A stretch of DNA of 64,000 nt from the NCBI GenBank assembly GCA_900755685.1, contig CAAEHI010000052.1:39150-103149 (forward strand), given 5' to 3'. The notes under the pieces are model-generated. The model did not search any database, had not been told where the DNA came from, and worked only from the letters and a program-made list of their open reading frames with translations. The DNA comes from an uncultured Collinsella sp. (GTDB lineage Bacteria; Actinomycetota; Coriobacteriia; Coriobacteriales; Coriobacteriaceae). The first letter of the stretch is position 1. Each line of letters begins with the position of its first letter. The translations under genes were made by a program, and so were the position numbers. Shown one piece after another: positions 6,293 through 43,774 of this stretch.

Positions 6293-6356
6293 CCAATCGC
6301 TTTAGCGCGTTTGGCTATTAAGAACATGCGGCAGACAAGTTTTTTGAAAAAAGTAC

Positions 6357-6385
6357 TTGCGTCTTTTGGACAACTCGCGTAAATT
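6357..6385 (+). promoter_or_regulatory. Promoter of the tRNA-Gly/Cys/Gly cluster (-35 ttgcgt, 17-nt spacer, -10 taaatt, upstream A-tract)
   Basis: ttttttgaaaaaagtacttgcgt-(17 nt)-taaatt, ending 12 nt before the tRNA 5' end. Confidence 0.55.
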
Positions 6386-8611: not shown

Positions 8612-8711
8612 GGGCCTTTTGCGGCGAGTTTGCGTTTGTCTGCGCCTTCCGTGGTGGCTGATGTCTTCGCGAGGTTCGCGAGGGCGTCGCAAAACTTTTT
8701 AAAAAAAGATC

Positions 8712-8740
8712 TTGCATTTGGGTGGATCATCCCGTATATT
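8712..8740 (+). promoter_or_regulatory. Promoter of the tRNA-Gly/Val pair (-35 ttgcat, 17-nt spacer, -10 tatatt, upstream A-tract)
   Basis: ctttttaaaaaaagatcttgcat-(17 nt)-tatatt, ending 12 nt before the tRNA. Confidence 0.55.
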
Positions 8741-36962: not shown

Positions 36963-37538
36963 ATGAGCCTAACGATTGATACCGCCTATGTGCACGGAAG
37001 GGTTATGGGAAAGATGGTCAATTACGGGTTTGGTATGCCGACGCGCCTTGTTGTGGATGGAGACGTGGCTCGCTGGTGCGGACGATTGGTCGCTCACTAC
37101 GGTGGCACCAAGGCGCTGGTCGTGTTGGGCGGTGACAAGCATACGCGCGATGAGCTTGTCTCGGCGGCACTTGGCTCGCTTGATCGAGCCCTACTCGAGC
37201 GCGTACTTTTCCGCTGCGGCTCGGTTGGGGGCGACGGGGGAGACGAACTGATCGACGAAGCCGTGGCCCTGGCGACCGACGAAGGCGTGGACTTTGTCCT
37301 GGCGATTGGCGATGCCGATACTGCTGGCTTTGCGCGCGAGCTCGCGCGTCGCATGGCGGCGCTCGATGCCGGCGAAGACGGTTTTGTCCCTTATGGATGC
37401 ATTCTCTCGGAGGGCAAGGCGCCTGCTGTCGTGGGCACCGGTGAGGTTCCCGTTTTTGCCATTATCGCGCCCGAACTGCTGGAGGGCATCGGGTCTCCTC
37501 TGCGTGAGTTGCTCGGTAGCATCTGCGCCGCGGCCTAA
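36963..37538 (+). CDS. Short Fe-ADH/DHQ-synthase-like N-terminal-domain protein; possible truncated remnant
   Basis: 191 aa. Resembles only the N-terminal Rossmann half of iron-containing alcohol dehydrogenases (…GTKALVVLGGDKHTRDELV…GVDFVLAIGDADTAGFA…) with the GGGS motif degenerate. The C-terminal metal-binding domain is absent. Confidence 0.4.
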   Translation: MSLTIDTAYVHGRVMGKMVNYGFGMPTRLVVDGDVARWCGRLVAHYGGTKALVVLGGDKHTRDELVSAALGSLDRALLERVLFRCGSVGGDGGDELIDEAVALATDEGVDFVLAIGDADTAGFARELARRMAALDAGEDGFVPYGCILSEGKAPAVVGTGEVPVFAIIAPELLEGIGSPLRELLGSICAAA

Positions 37539-37737
37539 TATTTGCCATAAAAGGACGGGTTATTTTTGGTTGGTAAAGCGTTTGACCTGCCAAAATAAGC
37601 CTGTCCCTTTTTAATCGGTTGCCGTTTGGGGGCCGATTGGCAACGCTCGCTGATTGTAGTCTTGACCTGCGCTAGAATAGTGGCATCTGAATGTCCGGGC
37701 GCATGGAGGCGTGCGCCCGTATGCTGAGGAGGACTCT

Positions 37738-39432
37738 ATGGCAACTGTTGCCGCACCTATCGATGCTACGTCGACTGCCGCTTGGAAGGCGCTCGAGGCT
37801 CATCAGGAGAAGCTCGAGGCCGAAGGTATCGACCTCAAGGCCTGGTTCGCTGCTGACGCCGACCGCGTGAACAAGCTGAGCTTTGACGCCGGTGACCTGC
37901 ACTTCGATCTGTCGAAGAACCTGGTGACCGATGAGACCGTCAAGCTGCTGTGCGATCTTGCCCGCGAGGTGAAGCTCGAGGAGCGCCGCGACGCCATGTT
38001 CTCCGGCGAGCACATTAACACCACCGAGGACCGCGCCGTCCTGCACACCGCGCTTCGCCGCCCGGTAACCGAGAAGGGCCAGCTCATCGTCGACGGCCAG
38101 GACGTCGTCGCCGACGTGCACGAGGTCCTCGACCGCATGTATGCCTTCGCCGAGCGCGTGCGTTCCGGTGAGTGGAAGGGCGTTACCGGCAAGAAGATCG
38201 AGCATCTGGTGTCCATCGGCATCGGCGGCTCCGACCTGGGCCCGGTCATGGCCTACGAGGCTCTGCGTCCCTATGCCGACTCCGGTATCGACTGCCGCTA
38301 CATCTCCAACATCGACCCCAACGACCAGGCCGAGAAGCTCAAGGGCCTGGATCCCGAGACCACGCTCGTAATCATCGTCTCCAAGACCTTCACCACGCTC
38401 GAGACCCTCACCAACGCCCGCGAGGTCAAGACCTGGATGCTCGAGCAGCTCAAGGCTCAGGGCGCCATCGACGGCTCCGATGAGCAGAACGCCGAGGCCG
38501 TGGCAAAGCACTTCGTCGCCGTCTCCACCGCACTCGAGAAGGTCGAGGCCTTCGGTATCGACCCCGCCAACGCCTTCGGTTTCTGGAACTGGGTTGGCGG
38601 CCGCTATTCCGTTGACTCGGCCGTGGGCCTGTCGCTGATTGTCGTGCTCGGCCCCGAGCGCTTCCAACAGTTCCTCGAGGGCTTCCGCGCCATCGATGAG
38701 TACTTCTGCAACACCCCGCTCGAGAACAACGCCGTCGCGCTGATGGGCCTGCTCAACGTCTGGTACGTCAACTTCTTCGGTTCCAAGAGCCACGCCGTGC
38801 TGCCGTACTGCCAGTACCTGCACCGCTTCCCGGCCTACCTGCAGCAGCTCACCATGGAGTCCAACGGCAAGCACGTCCGTTGGGACGGCAGCGCCGTGAC
38901 CTCCGATACCGGTGAGATCTTCTGGGGCGAGCCCGGCACCAACGGCCAGCATGCCTTCTATCAGCTGCTGCACCAGGGCACTGTGGTGGTTCCGGCCGAT
39001 TTTATCGCCTTTGCCAATACCGCCAACCCTGCGACCGATAGCGGTCAGGACGTGCATGAGCTGTTCCTGGGCAACTTCCTGGCCCAGACCAAGGCGCTCG
39101 CCTTTGGCAAGACTGCCGACGAGGTTCGTGCCGAGGGCACGCCCGAGCAGATCGTCCCGGCCCGTTGCTTTGAGGGCAACCGCCCGACGACCTCGATCTT
39201 CGGCGACACGCTGACCCCGTTCGCGCTCGGCGAGCTCATCGCCCTGTACGAGCACATCACGTTTGTCGAGGGCACGGTCTGGGGCATCGACTCCTACGAC
39301 CAGTGGGGCGTTGAGCTGGGCAAGCAGCTTGCCAAGCAGATTACCCCGGCCTTCCACGACGACGCCGCCAAGGCCGAGCAGGACGCTTCGACCCAGGCAC
39401 TCATCGAGTTCTACCGCGCTCACCGCAAGTAG
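37738..39432 (+). CDS. pgi: Glucose-6-phosphate isomerase
   Basis: RBS gaggagg. PGI signature regions (…GIGGSDLGP…, …GGRYS…, C-terminal conserved block). Confidence 0.9.
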
Positions 39433-39465
39433 TCGCTGCTGTTAACGCATCGCGCCTTATAGTCA

Positions 39466-39505
39466 GGGGCCCGTATCCTATCGGATGCGGGCCCCTTTGC
39501 TTTGC
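39466..39505. terminator. Terminator hairpin shared by the convergent pgi and T4CP-like genes
   Basis: ggggcccg-tatcctatcggat-gcgggcccc followed by tttgctttg. Confidence 0.5.
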
Positions 39506-39573: not shown

Positions 39574-40878
39574 CTAGATCTCGGCCTCCGCATGGCCTCG
39601 CTGTGCCTCGGGCAGCTCCCCGTAGAGCGGATGGTCTTCGAGCCTAAAGCGCTCGACCTGTTCGGGAGTGCGACCGCGTACAAAGAGCCACGAGCGATCG
39701 ATCGGCGTCGCCATGAGCGTGCTGGGTAGCGCGTCGGCGCGGTCGGAAAACACCCGGGCACTCTCGGGATCCTGGAACGCCAGCACCAGATGCGTGTCGC
39801 AGTTGCCCATGATGGAGCGTGCGCGTGCCTCGCCATAGAGCGCATCGAGCTGGTTGGTCGACTGCAGCAGCAGCGTTGCCCAGATGTTGCGGCTTCGGAT
39901 AATCGAGAGCACGTTGTCGATCTGGGGGATCTGCAGATTTGCGAAGTCATCGAGCATAAAGCGCACGGGCACGGGCAGGCTGCCGTCGGGCTGCCTATCG
40001 GCCTCACGAATGAGGCCCATAAACGCCTGCGAAATAAAGAGGCCGGTCAGCGGATCGAGATTGCGGTCAATATCGCTCACGGTTACAAACAGGGCGCAGG
40101 GGGTGTGTCCCATGGAAGCGAAGTCCACCTGATGGCACTCACGATAGAGCTGTGCCGCACCGTCGAATCCCAGACACATGACCTTTTCGGCAAGGATGCC
40201 GACGATGCTCGCGTGCATGCGCTCGGCATTTTGCGTAATGGCGTAGCGCCGCCATAGCGAGAGGGCATAGCCTTGGGGGTCGGTCGTGATCAGATCGTCA
40301 AACAATCGGGCCGTGGCACCGTCCTGCAGGTGCTCGATCAGCTTGATGACCGAGCTGATCGTCTGCTCGTCGGCGGGTAGCTGTTCGGTGACGTAGGCGA
40401 TAAGACACGACAGCAGGTTTGCCGCCGCATGATCCCAAAAAGGCTGGTTGTTGTCCTCGATGGGGCAGATGGCCTTTGCCACCGAGAGGATGTCCTGCTG
40501 GTTGGGCCTGCCGTCTGCCTTGCGGCGAATGTGCCTCAGGGGGTTGTAGCCGCAGCGCTCGATGCCGGGCGCAAGGGTCGGGACGGTGTTGAGGTCGGCG
40601 AAGTTGAGACATTGCACGCGGTAACCGTGGGCTGCCAGCACGGGTCCCACTTCGCGACAGAGCGTGCCTTTGGTGTCGAGCACGATGTAGCTTGCGTTCA
40701 TTTGCAGCAGGTTGGGCTTGAGGACGTTTCGGGTCTTGCCGGCTCCCGAGGGGCCGATCACAAGTGCGTTGTTGTTGAGTCCCGTTTGGCGGGTGTCGCA
40801 GGAAAGCGTTCGATCCTTGGCGAGGATGGTGGACGATGCGGACTCAGATGCGGCGAGGCGGCTGGTGAGGTTAGACAT
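39574..40878 (-). CDS. Soluble TraG/VirD4/TraD-family (type IV coupling protein-like) ATPase lacking the N-terminal membrane anchor
   Basis: RBS aggagg before the ATG at 40878. Walker A VIGPSGAGKT followed by the T4CP-typical PNLL…S-IVLDTKGT…G-RV-CLNF block; Walker B FMLDDFANL; C-terminal LLLQSTNQLDALYGE…MGNCDTHLVLAFQD block. No TM segments and no other conjugation genes nearby. Confidence 0.65.
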   Translation of the reverse strand: MSNLTSRLAASESASSTILAKDRTLSCDTRQTGLNNNALVIGPSGAGKTRNVLKPNLLQMNASYIVLDTKGTLCREVGPVLAAHGYRVQCLNFADLNTVPTLAPGIERCGYNPLRHIRRKADGRPNQQDILSVAKAICPIEDNNQPFWDHAAANLLSCLIAYVTEQLPADEQTISSVIKLIEHLQDGATARLFDDLITTDPQGYALSLWRRYAITQNAERMHASIVGILAEKVMCLGFDGAAQLYRECHQVDFASMGHTPCALFVTVSDIDRNLDPLTGLFISQAFMGLIREADRQPDGSLPVPVRFMLDDFANLQIPQIDNVLSIIRSRNIWATLLLQSTNQLDALYGEARARSIMGNCDTHLVLAFQDPESARVFSDRADALPSTLMATPIDRSWLFVRGRTPEQVERFRLEDHPLYGELPEAQRGHAEAEI

Positions 40879-41488
40879 GGGCGACCTCCTTGGTGGTCGA
40901 GAGGATTTCGTGGGCAAAGCCGAGCTCGACGGCGCGCTCGGCCGAAAGGTAGGTGTCTTTTGCAGTGAGGGACTGGATGCGCTTGGGCGTGAGGCCGCTG
41001 CGGTCCGAGAGGATTTGCGTGAGGGTCTTGCGGGTCTGCATGAGACGCCGGCTGGTTTCCTGCAGCGCAAGTGCCGAGCCGCCTGCCCCCTGGGGGATCA
41101 GTGGGTCGTGAATCATGAGCTCTGCATGGGGCGCCATACGGCGATCGTCGCCGCCCATAAAGATCACAGCGCCCATGGACGCGGCGAATTCCAGGCAGAC
41201 GGTGCGGATGGGGCACGATGCGAGGCGCATGGCGTCATAGATCGCAAGACCCGATCGCACGCTTCCGCCGGCGCTGGCGACAAATATGGTGATGGGGCGG
41301 CTGGGGTCGGTGGCATCGAGCAGGCGGATCTGCTGGCATAGGTCGTGGGCCATCGGGGTTTCGATGTTTCCCATGACGGAGAGCTCGCGACGGGCGAGCA
41401 TCTCATCGTAAATGCTGGTGAGCGTGATACCTCGGGCGGATTCACGCATGGTGAGGGGGCTGATGATGGGGGAATGATTGGTGTCCAT
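40871..41488 (-). CDS. ClpP-family (S14) serine protease-like protein
   Basis: 205 aa. Ser (EFAASMGAVI), His (ELMIHDP) and Asp (AKDTYLSAERA) are in the ClpP catalytic-triad arrangement. The stop is 2 nt before the T4CP-like start. Confidence 0.75.
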   Translation of the reverse strand: MDTNHSPIISPLTMRESARGITLTSIYDEMLARRELSVMGNIETPMAHDLCQQIRLLDATDPSRPITIFVASAGGSVRSGLAIYDAMRLASCPIRTVCLEFAASMGAVIFMGGDDRRMAPHAELMIHDPLIPQGAGGSALALQETSRRLMQTRKTLTQILSDRSGLTPKRIQSLTAKDTYLSAERAVELGFAHEILSTTKEVAHV

Positions 41489-41551
41489 GAGGACTCCTTT
41501 CTGTTGGTTGTGTTGTGGAATAGGATTGTTGCCCGCGGAGGGGCTGGCGGG

Positions 41552-42442
41552 CTACAGGGTTCGTCCGAGCCTGAGATCGAGCTCGGTTGTGGGGCAGGCT
41601 GCCTGTCCGTGCGGCTCGCAAGCGCCAAGGGCTCCAAAGCGATGGAGCGTTGCGACGGGCGTGGTGTAGGCGAGCCGCAGCTGATGCTCGATAGGGGCAC
41701 ATCCGTCATTTTTGTAATGAGCCGCGTAGTACTGCGCGATGCTGGCGTTCATCTCGCTGCCATTGCGATGGCGCTCAAACTGGCGTCTGCAGGTCTCGAT
41801 GATCTTTGCTACCGACTTGGGTGCCGTCGCGGGAACAAGGGCGAGATAGCCCTCAAATAGCTCGTTGATGCTCAGGAGGCACAGCAGGTCGATCAGCGTC
41901 CTTATGGCTGCTCCCTCGGCGGAAAAGTGCGCGGTCATGCGGTTATATCGGTTGCGGTCGACGATGGCCACATGGGGTCTTGGAGTTTTCTGCCCCGTGG
42001 TCCCGGGCTTTTGCCGCGCCTGTGTATTGAGCTCGACGTTGCAGCGCTTGAGGCCGTCCAACGGAAGGAACAGTGCGGTGCGCAGGGTGTTCCGCTTGCT
42101 TTCGAGTTCATGACGCTCGCCGGGTTCCCATTCGAGCTTGAGTTTCGTGTCGAGCGCCGTAAGCATATGGGCTAGGCAGCCTACGGTAAGAACGTACGAA
42201 TCGTTGTCGCGTTTTGGGGCATAGGGGTCTGTCAGCTTGCGAATGTCGGGGTCGCCCATGATCTTTGTGCAGCGCTTCAGCAGTTGAGGGTGGTCGGCCA
42301 AGATCGTCGCGAGCGGTAGCGACGCGTAGTTCTTGATGGTCGCGGCGGCAAAGGCGGCGTCATATTCGTTTGCATATGCTCGCTCAATGCGGGCATCCAG
42401 AATGCTTTTCTTATCGCCGTCTTCAGCGTGGTGGTTTGTCAT
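41552..42442 (-). CDS. Hypothetical protein, first gene of the ClpP-like/T4CP-like operon
   Basis: RBS ggaga before the ATG at 42442 (MTNHHAEDGDKK…). 297 aa, no family recognised. The six-frame ORF extends 52 codons upstream without RBS support. Confidence 0.55.
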   Translation of the reverse strand: MTNHHAEDGDKKSILDARIERAYANEYDAAFAAATIKNYASLPLATILADHPQLLKRCTKIMGDPDIRKLTDPYAPKRDNDSYVLTVGCLAHMLTALDTKLKLEWEPGERHELESKRNTLRTALFLPLDGLKRCNVELNTQARQKPGTTGQKTPRPHVAIVDRNRYNRMTAHFSAEGAAIRTLIDLLCLLSINELFEGYLALVPATAPKSVAKIIETCRRQFERHRNGSEMNASIAQYYAAHYKNDGCAPIEHQLRLAYTTPVATLHRFGALGACEPHGQAACPTTELDLRLGRTL

Positions 42443-42784
42443 AGCTTCTCCAATCGGTTGATGTTCGTGCTGTTTGTTGATGTGCTGGTTGTCGTGAGTG
42501 ATGCGCTTGCCGTGGGTGATGTGCTGACGTTGGGGTGCTATGCGGTTTTCAATGAGCCCGTGAGGCAGTTGCTGCAGGGGCGGGATGGAACGGCCCATGC
42601 AAGGCGGAAGGCATCGTGCTCAAAATCGAGACAGCAATGCCCTGGGTGCCTCACATGTGGCAGTTACCTCATTAAGTTGTCATTGCGTTTGGGGTTGTAC
42701 TTTGCCGATCTTCCTTCTCTTACACGCTAAAACTCAAACTTCATATGCTCGATCTACTTAAAACCGCAACGGCGGTCTTTTATC

Positions 42785-42813
42785 AACTTATATGTCAGAA
42801 CGCGTCTTTGCAA
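42785..42813 (-). promoter_or_regulatory. Minus-strand promoter matching the tRNA-promoter consensus, ~335 nt upstream of the hypothetical/ClpP-like/T4CP-like operon
   Basis: The minus strand reads cgcaaaaaagtacttgcaa-(17 nt)-taagtt. The A-tract plus gtacttgc is identical to the tRNA-Gly promoter at 6344-6360. Confidence 0.4.
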
Positions 42814-42931
42814 GTACTTTTTTGCGTTTGTTTCAAATGGGGTGGTTTTGCAACCGTCATGCGCGCGCTGTGCGAACGTGCCCCGGCTCGGATAAGATAG
42901 TGCGCGATAAAAACGATGCAAGGAGGCACAT

Positions 42932-43774
42932 ATGGCAATCAAAGCCATCGCGATGGATATCGACGGTACGCTCACCAACGACCAGAAAGTGATTAGCCCG
43001 CGTACGCGCGAGAAGCTGCTTGCGGCGCAGGAGTCGGGCATTAAGCTCATTTTGGCTTCGGGCCGTCCCGCATGGGGGCTGCACGCCTTGGCGCAGGAGC
43101 TCGACCTTCAAAACCATGACGGTCTGCTAGTTGCCTTTAATGGCGCGCATGTGGTCGACGCTCAGACCGATGAGGTCCTTTTTGACCAGGCCATGCCGTC
43201 TGACGAACTGCACCGTCTGATTGATCATCTGCAAAACTATGATGTGATCCCCATGATCTCGCTCGGTCGCGACTTGCATGTCGAGGATTCGTACCGCTGC
43301 ATGATTACGCTGCCGGATGGCTCGCAGAAGAATATCGTCAAGTATGAGCGCGATGCATGCGATCTTAAGATTCGCGAGGTGGAGAGCCTGCATGAGGTTG
43401 TGGACGCTTATCCCGTGGACAAGCTGCTGACGGCGGGCGATCCGACCTACCTGCAGGCGCATTACGAGGAGATGTATGCGCCCTTTACCCAGACGCTTTC
43501 GGGCATGTTTACGGCCGACTGGTACTTTGAGTACACGGCGCCCGGTATCGACAAGGCCCGCGCGCTCGAGGGTGCCCTGCCCAAGCTCGGCATCGATGCC
43601 GGTGAGGTCGTATCGTTTGGCGACGGCCAGAACGACAAGTCCATGATTGAGTGGGCCGGAACCGGTGTTGCCATGGGCAACGCCGTCGATGAGGTCAAGG
43701 CTGTGGCCCAGATGGTGACCGCCAATAACAACGAAGACGGCATTGCGGTGGCACTGGATAAGCTGCTGGGCTAG
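42932..43774 (+). CDS. Cof-type HAD-IIB hydrolase
   Basis: MAIKAIAMDIDGTLTND… RBS aaggagg. Confidence 0.8.
   Translation: MAIKAIAMDIDGTLTNDQKVISPRTREKLLAAQESGIKLILASGRPAWGLHALAQELDLQNHDGLLVAFNGAHVVDAQTDEVLFDQAMPSDELHRLIDHLQNYDVIPMISLGRDLHVEDSYRCMITLPDGSQKNIVKYERDACDLKIREVESLHEVVDAYPVDKLLTAGDPTYLQAHYEEMYAPFTQTLSGMFTADWYFEYTAPGIDKARALEGALPKLGIDAGEVVSFGDGQNDKSMIEWAGTGVAMGNAVDEVKAVAQMVTANNNEDGIAVALDKLLG

Follow-up and report, generated by a model that had tools for sequence, protein, structure and literature searches.

A ClpP-fold protease encoded with an anchorless coupling-protein-type ATPase and a fast-evolving helical partner in Collinsella: a possible conflict module

To our knowledge, ClpP works only with AAA+ partners, and coupling proteins are known only as membrane gates of type IV secretion. 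Here we describe a locus of an uncultured Collinsella sp. (contig CAAEHI010000052.1; the whole 64-kb stretch that was analysed is called the window below) in which a ClpP-fold protease paralogue is encoded next to a soluble ATPase with the fold of a type IV coupling protein (T4CP). The minus strand of the window holds three co-oriented open reading frames (ORFs), with pgi on one side and a HAD hydrolase gene on the other, and the first of them encodes a helical protein that we call the partner. As proposed in a preliminary description, these genes are a real unit with all ORFs present. It is quite possible, if somewhat short of probable, that the operon is a member of a widespread and so far undescribed three-component conflict or defence module, in which an ATPase and a protease are joined by the variable partner as a specificity or regulatory subunit. 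The genes and their flanks are as follows.

41552-42442, minus strand: partner gene, encoding a 296-aa all-alpha protein with a conserved N-terminal LxxRI, a conserved C-terminal PxA...ELxRRL and a hypervariable body.
40871-41488, minus strand: ClpP-fold serine protease paralogue of 205 aa, with the triad Ser104-His127-Asp178.
39574-40878, minus strand: soluble T4CP-fold ATPase of 434 aa, with a nucleotide-binding domain and an all-alpha domain (Walker A GPSGAGKT, Walker B LDDF).
37711-39432, plus strand: pgi, flanking gene, convergent with the ATPase gene.
42932-43774, plus strand: HAD hydrolase gene, flanking gene.

The partner ATG has the sequence GGAGAAG just 5' of it, and from this start the protein has 296 residues and not the 297 given at first. 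The gap of 63 nt between the partner and ClpP-like genes stands as described, whereas the supposed 2-nt gap between the ClpP-like and ATPase genes is actually an 8-nt overlap (ATGTCTAA), which suggests that these two genes are translationally coupled.

The ATPase shares its fold, both of its domains and the Walker A/B and Q...YG motifs with the conjugative coupling proteins of the CD1115 family. It matches the Pfam families T4SS-DNA_transf (1.6e-32), TrwB_AAD_bind (8e-17) and TraG-D_C (8e-20), and just passes the NCBIfam model NF045973, 'VirD4-like conjugal transfer protein, CD1115 family' (256.4 bits, cutoff 250). All motifs quoted for it in the preliminary description (GPSGAGKT, PNLL, DTKG, DDF, QSTNQLD and GNCD) are in the translation, with Walker A at residue 42. 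Genuine CD1115 proteins (from a Paenibacillus plasmid, pMG2200 and a Vescimonas replicon) have about 590-620 aa, are 29-32% identical to the window ATPase and are encoded in type IV secretion system (T4SS) clusters (PcfB, VirB6-like, PrgI, VirB4-like, C40 peptidase and TopoIII) without ClpP. In contrast, the window ATPase and all of its Coriobacteriia homologues lack the N-terminal region of about 115-135 aa that carries two transmembrane segments in CD1115 proteins, as well as the C-terminal insertion of about 30 aa and the long tail. Window-type ATPases have an adjacent ClpP-like gene and never VirB4, VirB6, PrgI, PcfB or relaxase in the loci examined. The absence of a transmembrane anchor was confirmed by hydropathy: the maximal 19-residue Kyte-Doolittle value of the ATPase is 1.30, with no hydrophobic 19-mer above 1.3, whereas two of the plasmid CD1115 proteins (Paenibacillus plasmid and pMG2200) each have two N-terminal segments above 2.1. 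The in-frame extension 5' of the ATPase start is hydrophilic and overlaps the ClpP gene. The protein thus has the T4CP nucleotide-binding domain with Walker A/B and the all-alpha domain, and lacks both the N-terminal anchor and the company of T4SS or relaxase genes.

The AlphaFold2 model of the ATPase (pLDDT 91.6) was compared with known structures by Foldseek. Cagbeta (9e-16) and TrwB (1e-14) came out on top, with query-normalised TM-scores of 0.66-0.73, and the best match was Cagbeta in its complex with CagZ (8dol). In order, the matches were Cagbeta (with CagZ), TrwB, DotL, VirB4 and then HerA proteins, which belong to the Sir2-HerA and DUF4297-HerA defence complexes. The T4SS-DNA_transf domain has been reported as a rare sensor domain of Menshen NsnA (PMC12065111). 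Among the relatives of the ATPase, one protein of 644 aa (P0389) is an anchorless T4CP-like ATPase fused to a C-terminal DUF2726/REase_MTES_1575-like nuclease domain, and three others (P0277, P0279 and P0410) have C-terminal extensions of 150-400 aa with no Pfam match.

The second point of comparison is ClpXP, ClpAP and ClpCP, which resemble the locus in having a ClpP-fold subunit with the catalytic triad and a canonical N-terminal axial region, co-encoded with a ring-forming ATPase. The ClpP-like protein matches the Pfam family CLP_protease (E 1e-44) and aligns end to end with solved ClpPs, the N-terminal axial region included. All three triad residues (Ser104, His127 and Asp178) are unchanged across nine Coriobacteriia homologues; the 64 distant metagenomic homologues all keep the Ser and His, and 60 of them the Asp. 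The Pfam match, the alignment and the conservation of the triad agree with the ClpP fold and the Ser-His-Asp arrangement recognised in the preliminary description, and the protein looks catalytically competent from its sequence. Its scores fall short of the NCBIfam cutoffs for genuine ClpP (NF001368, 150.5 against 249; TIGR00493, 122.9 against 308.6). We take the residues of the pocket that receives IGF loops in E. coli ClpP to be Tyr60, Phe82 and Phe112. At these presumed positions, the equivalent of Tyr60 is Thr or Ala in all nine cassette ClpP-like proteins; that of Phe112 is Arg, Gln, Glu, Ala or Leu in the nine and mostly Glu or Asp in the 64 metagenomic homologues, and that of Phe82 is variable. 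Judged by these reference residues, the hydrophobic pocket for IGF/LGF loops is lacking. Unlike the partners of ClpXP, ClpAP and ClpCP, the window ATPase belongs to the FtsK/HerA/T4CP (RecA-like ASCE) class and not to AAA+, and an IGF/LGF loop was not found in it. Its sole IGF-like tripeptide, in CLGF, was rejected as a ClpP-docking loop, being in a confident helix (pLDDT ~94) and replaced by LAF or FSL in two homologues. Two 637-aa proteins (P0001 and P0003) that appeared to be natural ClpP-ATPase fusions were also rejected, as frameshift read-throughs into an alternative frame.

Sir2-HerA and DUF4297-HerA resemble the locus in that a hexameric FtsK/HerA-superfamily ATPase is co-encoded with an enzymatic effector. 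They differ in that the window ATPase is a member of the T4CP clade and has an all-alpha domain, its effector has a ClpP fold and a third, hypervariable helical component is present; the PADLOC models of the HerA complexes do not match the window proteins. The likeness to ietAS (Gao_Iet), raised in the preliminary description, is formal only, namely an ATPase gene adjoining a serine protease gene in defence contexts. The ietAS protease is a subtilase, while the window protease has a ClpP fold and its ATPase is of another class, and no IetA or IetS model matches. Finally, the cag T4SS of Helicobacter pylori offers CagZ-Cagbeta, where a gene for a helical protein likewise stands beside a VirD4-type ATPase gene. 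However, Cagbeta is membrane-anchored and works in a T4SS, and the partner has no detected sequence or fold similarity to CagZ. PADLOC-DB v2.0.0 gave a single weak match for the ATPase (mad8, 7e-8) and none for the ClpP-like protein or the partner. We rejected mad8 as a defence identity, as the match reflects generic P-loop similarity and an unrelated helicase matches the same model. A description of the ATPase-protease pairing was not found in PADLOC-DB v2.0.0, Pfam, NCBIfam or the searchable literature, in line with the earlier remark that it matches no known module.

We then investigated how widely the pair occurs. The 80 best genomic matches are all Collinsella of the aerofaciens group, with ATPases 99% identical to that of the window, and the taxonomic breadth was drawn from other searches. 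Among species-representative genomes, 584 relatives of the ATPase were detected. An exhaustive profile search for the ATPase returned 2,343 proteins at E<=1e-30. The best 150 cluster representatives, which we inspected, are mostly 400-460 aa long, begin to align within their first ~30 residues and share 30-47% identity with the window ATPase. Of the new sequences in this set, 81 contain a Walker A that can be recognised, and an N-terminal hydrophobic segment occurs in just one of these. A metagenome scan with a set of distant representatives gave 80 loci whose ATPases are about 34% identical to that of the window. A ClpP-like gene adjoins the ATPase gene in 68 of them, and most of the other 12 end at a contig end. 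These loci range in GC content from 0.28 to 0.66, which points to taxonomically diverse hosts. The operon had been called an orphan, which does not hold: the pair is widespread, both across Coriobacteriia genera and in the metagenomes, and the possibility that the protease and ATPase never co-occur elsewhere is contradicted by the same 68 loci.

Homologues of VirB4, VirB6, PcfB, relaxase and TopoIII were found in none of the 80 metagenomic loci, capsid or portal Pfam families were not seen among the neighbours, and no relatives of the ATPase were found in IMG/VR. The statement that conjugation and phage genes are absent from the window therefore extends to the roughly 100 related loci examined, and the embedding in conjugative elements or prophages that would have spoken against an independent unit was looked for and not seen, with no T4SS marker in the 80 loci and no IMG/VR match. 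We rejected a phage origin: besides the lack of IMG/VR relatives, the 'phage' matches in GenBank are unannotated gut contigs that encode full-length T4CP relatives of about 600 aa and no ClpP. These data bear on the idea that the operon is a decaying integrative conjugative element or prophage remnant with no function of its own. The ATPase passes the conjugal CD1115 model, ClpP-fold proteases occur in phage head modules (the window protein reaches 95.3 bits with the head-maturation protease model NF045542, failing its cutoff of 120), and some assemblies carry frameshifted copies. Nevertheless, all lineages have intact frames and catalytic motifs, the genes are under purifying selection, the pair is conserved over a large sequence distance, and capsid, portal, T4SS and relaxase neighbours are missing along with viral relatives, so that a remnant is largely excluded. 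The linkage of the two genes, the intact active sites, the loss of the anchor and the absence of secretion genes together show that the module is functional and has left conjugation behind.

The frameshifted or merged partner, ClpP-like and ATPase genes were seen in L017, L035, L043, L046, P0001, P0003, P0133 and P0151, and are either assembly errors or cases of occasional pseudogenisation.

The partner has no match in Pfam, NCBIfam, PADLOC or PDB sequences. Its AlphaFold model is all-helical and of moderate confidence (pLDDT 64.7, pTM 0.70) with disordered termini; a fold match for this model was not found, nor was a toxin-like domain detected in family libraries or the fold search. The view that this protein belongs to no recognisable family holds for the curated libraries but not beyond them, for a fast-evolving family accompanies the pair in other genera, where proteins of about 256-321 aa beside it are remote homologues of the partner. 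The Collinsella partner profile matches those of L100 (1e-32), L092 (2e-12), L001 (1e-7) and, marginally, L002, and the proteins in the partner position of L002 and L097 match one another (1e-18). In an alignment of 11 members, the few invariant positions are an N-terminal LxxR[IL], PxA and a C-terminal ELxRRL-type tail. A profile search with diverse partner sequences matched only unannotated Collinsella-type proteins. In low-GC loci, the pair is flanked by same-strand proteins of about 300 aa, the largest cluster of which is collinear with the Coriobacteriia partner profile, including both terminal motifs, though the match is weak (hhalign E 0.002, probability 14%; control cluster, E 0.8). 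A 52-codon in-frame extension 5' of the partner ATG (42443-42600, minus strand) stays open, for which reason databases often give a partner of 348-352 aa. The extension is nearly the same in alleles whose partner bodies are 44% identical, and may be either a conserved leader or a real N-terminal extension.

The cassette evolves far faster than its flanks, and the partner is the fastest of its genes. Between the window and locus L096, pgi is 98% and the HAD hydrolase 94% identical, whereas ClpP is 82%, the ATPase 79% and the partner only 44% identical. In the same comparison, dS is 0.55-1.6 in the cassette against 0.23 in pgi, and dN/dS is 0.33 for the partner, 0.20 for ClpP, 0.17 for the ATPase and 0.04 for the flanks. 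Across comparisons, dN/dS is 0.08-0.20 for the enzymes and about 0.35-0.4 for the partner, and by this measure both enzymes are under purifying selection; their triad and Walker motifs are conserved. The comparison with locus L094 revealed a mosaic: nucleotide identity is 99-100% over the partner C-terminus, ClpP and most of the ATPase, but falls to 75-84% in codons 1-190 of the partner and to 89-91% in codons ~175-325 of the ATPase, the region of the all-alpha domain. This coincidence of variable blocks, one in the partner and one in the ATPase's all-alpha domain, is a hint as to the role of the partner. In 34 near-identical cassettes, the cassette dS of 0.03-0.07 is lower than the flank dS of 0.16-0.32, which hints at the spread of an allele by recombination, in a comparison that is biased since the loci were selected by ATPase similarity.

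Gene order varies among genera, with partner-ATPase-ClpP in Enorma and partner-ClpP-ATPase in Thermophilibacter and Olsenella. In L092 (9023-14967), two partner and ATPase pairs (321 + 491 aa and 316 + 466 aa) accompany a single ClpP-like gene, with genes for SSB and DprA and transposases close to the duplicated pairs. In L088 (4501-12044), five genes without a family stand between the ClpP and ATPase genes; their products have 269, 102, 115, 369 and 638 aa. The ORF of 102 aa resembles the ATPase, perhaps as a fragment of it or as a pseudogene, and the 269-aa protein and a 262-aa protein are paralogues. In L091 (236-6003), the genes that come after an anchorless ATPase encode an 825-aa FtsK/SpoIIIE protein and four proteins with about 86-90 aa each, with dnaK-grpE next. 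This arrangement is reminiscent of a type VII secretion-like cluster, and the contig begins just upstream of the ATPase.

We then investigated the position of the cassette in Collinsella. The triad of genes is found at the same HAD-pgi locus in four further Collinsella-like lineages, whose ATPases are 95, 79, 67 and 57% identical to that of the window. No empty site was seen, as all contigs with an identical HAD protein and enough flank carry the cassette. With the same locus throughout and no empty site, the cassette is a fixed resident of the Collinsella lineage and not a recent insertion, and we no longer speak of an acquired cassette in the recent sense proposed earlier. Upstream of the partner gene there are the following features.

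42785-42822, minus strand: putative strong promoter, with an A-tract, a CTTGCA -35 element, a 17-nt spacer and a TAAGTT -10 element.
42443-42784, minus strand: 5' leader of ~335-340 nt, in which a short 5' hairpin and the blocks AGATCGAGC...GAAGATCGGCA and ACAACTTAAT are conserved.
2877-2915, 6348-6385 and 8703-8740, plus strand: copies of the promoter pattern upstream of tRNA genes (AAAAAG-NN-CTTGC, ~17-nt spacer, TAnnnT).

Scanning the 64-kb window with the composite pattern AAAAAGNNCTTGC-N19-21-TANNNT gave four copies against 0.01 expected. Three precede tRNA genes and the fourth is the operon's own (42822-42785), in agreement with the earlier proposal that its promoter copies the tRNA-promoter consensus. 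The composite motif looks like a strong-promoter consensus of the organism, and a high expression of the operon in Collinsella is predicted; a generic sigma-70 scan made no call at 42785-42822. The promoter is kept at the same position in 68 related loci, among them the diverged alleles L094 and L102. The leader has the length of about 335 nt given before, and it is nearly identical between alleles whose first genes are 44% identical, being far better conserved than that gene. It contains two AGATCG-containing blocks about 46 nt apart. A riboswitch or other known RNA in the leader was rejected, with no Rfam match at E up to 1 and a weak consensus structure.

This fixation, together with the strong promoter, keeps alive an alternative, which we consider unlikely, that the operon serves housekeeping regulated proteolysis with no conflict role. 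The soluble T4CP-like hexamer would then serve a dedicated ClpP paralogue as a non-AAA+ unfoldase or adaptor, the two would degrade endogenous substrates, and the helical protein would be an adaptor, anti-adaptor or substrate. The single chromosomal locus kept across Collinsella lineages without an empty site, the conservation of the tRNA-type promoter and leader and the purifying selection on both enzymes are consistent with such a function, as is a ClpP with canonical axial region and triad and a docking pocket altered as expected for a non-canonical partner. On the other hand, the contrast of 44% with 98% identity between the partner and the flanks, the mosaics, the duplicated partner and ATPase pairs and the variable gene order are unusual for such machines, a dN/dS of about 0.35-0.4 for the partner does not suit them, and outside Collinsella the genes are found beside DarTG, PsyrTA, PDC-M16 and McrBC.

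These positions were found by investigating the neighbouring genes. In Enorma, Olsenella and Thermophilibacter, the triads have defence-type neighbours (DarTG, PsyrTA and PDC-M16): DarT-NADAR and PsyrT (5e-217) follow the triad in Enorma; a TOTE-type S1/CSD protein (PDC-M16B) and a Mokosh-like helicase follow it in Olsenella; and a weak PDC-M16B-like protein follows it in Thermophilibacter, with a Schlafen/AlbA-domain protein nearby. A census of 119 neighbour proteins in 22 non-redundant metagenomic loci found DnaB-like helicases (4), DUF5688 (3), ArdC-like proteins (2) and McrBC (2), as well as LlaJI and other type II restriction enzymes, SoFic and WYL proteins; the remaining neighbours are metabolic genes of ordinary kinds. 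The flanks of the Collinsella cassette are metabolic.

The loci closest to the metagenome query, L108 (5490-7343) and L109 (5147-7117), have two genes for proteins of about 300 aa 5' of ClpP, which encode DUF5688 and ArdC-like (ssDNA-binding plus metallopeptidase) proteins; McrBC-type genes are nearby and the context is mobile-element-like. A gene for a cold-shock or S1/CSD-like protein recurs directly 3' of the ATPase gene (L134, 9387-10403, and 18 similar loci; L002, 8538-9752; L097, 11336-12640). In the 19 low-GC loci it has an N-terminal CSD, and in Thermophilibacter and Olsenella it is a TOTE-type S1CSD protein. It may be an optional fourth component or merely part of a neighbouring system.

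The mobile-element neighbours sustain another alternative, to which we also give little weight: a selfish module serving mobile elements, fixed in Collinsella since, acting either as an addiction circuit or as a device for anti-defence or competition between elements. In the addiction version, the partner would be a labile protein steadily removed by the ATPase-ClpP pair; in the competition version, the module would be carried by integrative elements. Some relatives do stand beside ArdC-like anti-restriction, DUF5688 and DnaB-like replicative helicase genes, the ATPase descends from mobile-element coupling proteins, and alleles are exchanged at the locus by recombination. The conserved, partly disordered termini of the partner, with their Arg-rich ELxRRL tail, around a variable body would also fit a recognised substrate. 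However, none of the copies was seen with an integrase, relaxase or T4SS gene nearby, the Collinsella flanks are plain metabolic genes and a toxin-like domain was not detected in the partner.

A role in conflict or defence is pointed to by the fast, mosaic and partner-centred evolution, the duplicated pairs, the variable gene order, the nuclease fusion and the defence neighbours, and of the roles suggested in the preliminary description, defence or regulated proteolysis is still the best reading. In such a module, the soluble hexameric ATPase, derived from Firmicutes-type conjugative coupling proteins and deprived of anchor and secretion channel, would be a nucleotide-driven sensor or motor; the co-translated ClpP-fold protease would be the proteolytic effector, and the fast-diversifying helical partner the specificity or regulatory subunit. 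The partner would probably bind the ATPase at its all-alpha domain, in the way that CagZ binds Cagbeta, a VirD4 homologue, and CagZ-Cagbeta is the structural precedent for the partner as a regulator. When a foreign macromolecule (DNA, or a protein that is linked to DNA or bears a signal) is recognised, the ATPase would be switched, and proteolysis thereby triggered or directed. We infer the formation of a complex, its trigger and substrates and any protective phenotype.

Several observations weigh against a conflict or defence module. Defence systems are usually patchy, while all Collinsella genomes seen have the cassette fixed at the one housekeeping locus and driven by a tRNA-type promoter. 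Defence neighbours are a minority (by raw count, roughly 6-8 of the 119), and some Firmicutes-type loci carry ArdC-like, DUF5688 and DnaB-like mobile-element genes, so that the module could serve a mobile element and not the host. The dN/dS ratio is below 1 everywhere, the homology between the Coriobacteriia partner and the ~300-aa neighbours of low-GC loci is weak, no IGF-like docking loop was found in the ATPase, and the contact between the ATPase and ClpP is one that we infer.

A bolder proposal, which we regard as doubtful, is that the pair represents an ATP-dependent protease of a new class, whose ClpP barrel would be served by a soluble FtsK/HerA-superfamily coupling-protein hexamer instead of an AAA+ unfoldase. 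The hexamer would still recognise substrates by the logic of conjugative coupling proteins, and would capture incoming relaxase-DNA, other signal-bearing invader proteins or its own Arg-tailed partner for the protease. If this is true, a conjugation motor has been repurposed as an intracellular device for interception and degradation. The conserved and widespread pairing of a ClpP paralogue with an anchorless coupling protein would extend both fields if the two act together, and would add a protease-effector module to the bacterial conflict systems and a case of conjugation machinery domesticated for an intracellular task. As the module is fixed, predicted to be highly expressed and hypervariable in Collinsella, a very abundant genus of the human gut, it may shape the traffic of phages and plasmids there.

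Two minor features lie on the pgi side of the operon. The first is likely a bidirectional terminator.

39465-39496, strand not assigned: 14-bp GC-rich hairpin between the convergent ATPase and pgi genes.

The second is an ORF of the Fe-ADH family by pgi (36963-37538, plus strand), whose product is only 191 aa long in the window and 174-191 aa long in close relatives. Its syntenic counterpart in L100 encodes 392 aa, and the window ORF is probably a truncated remnant.

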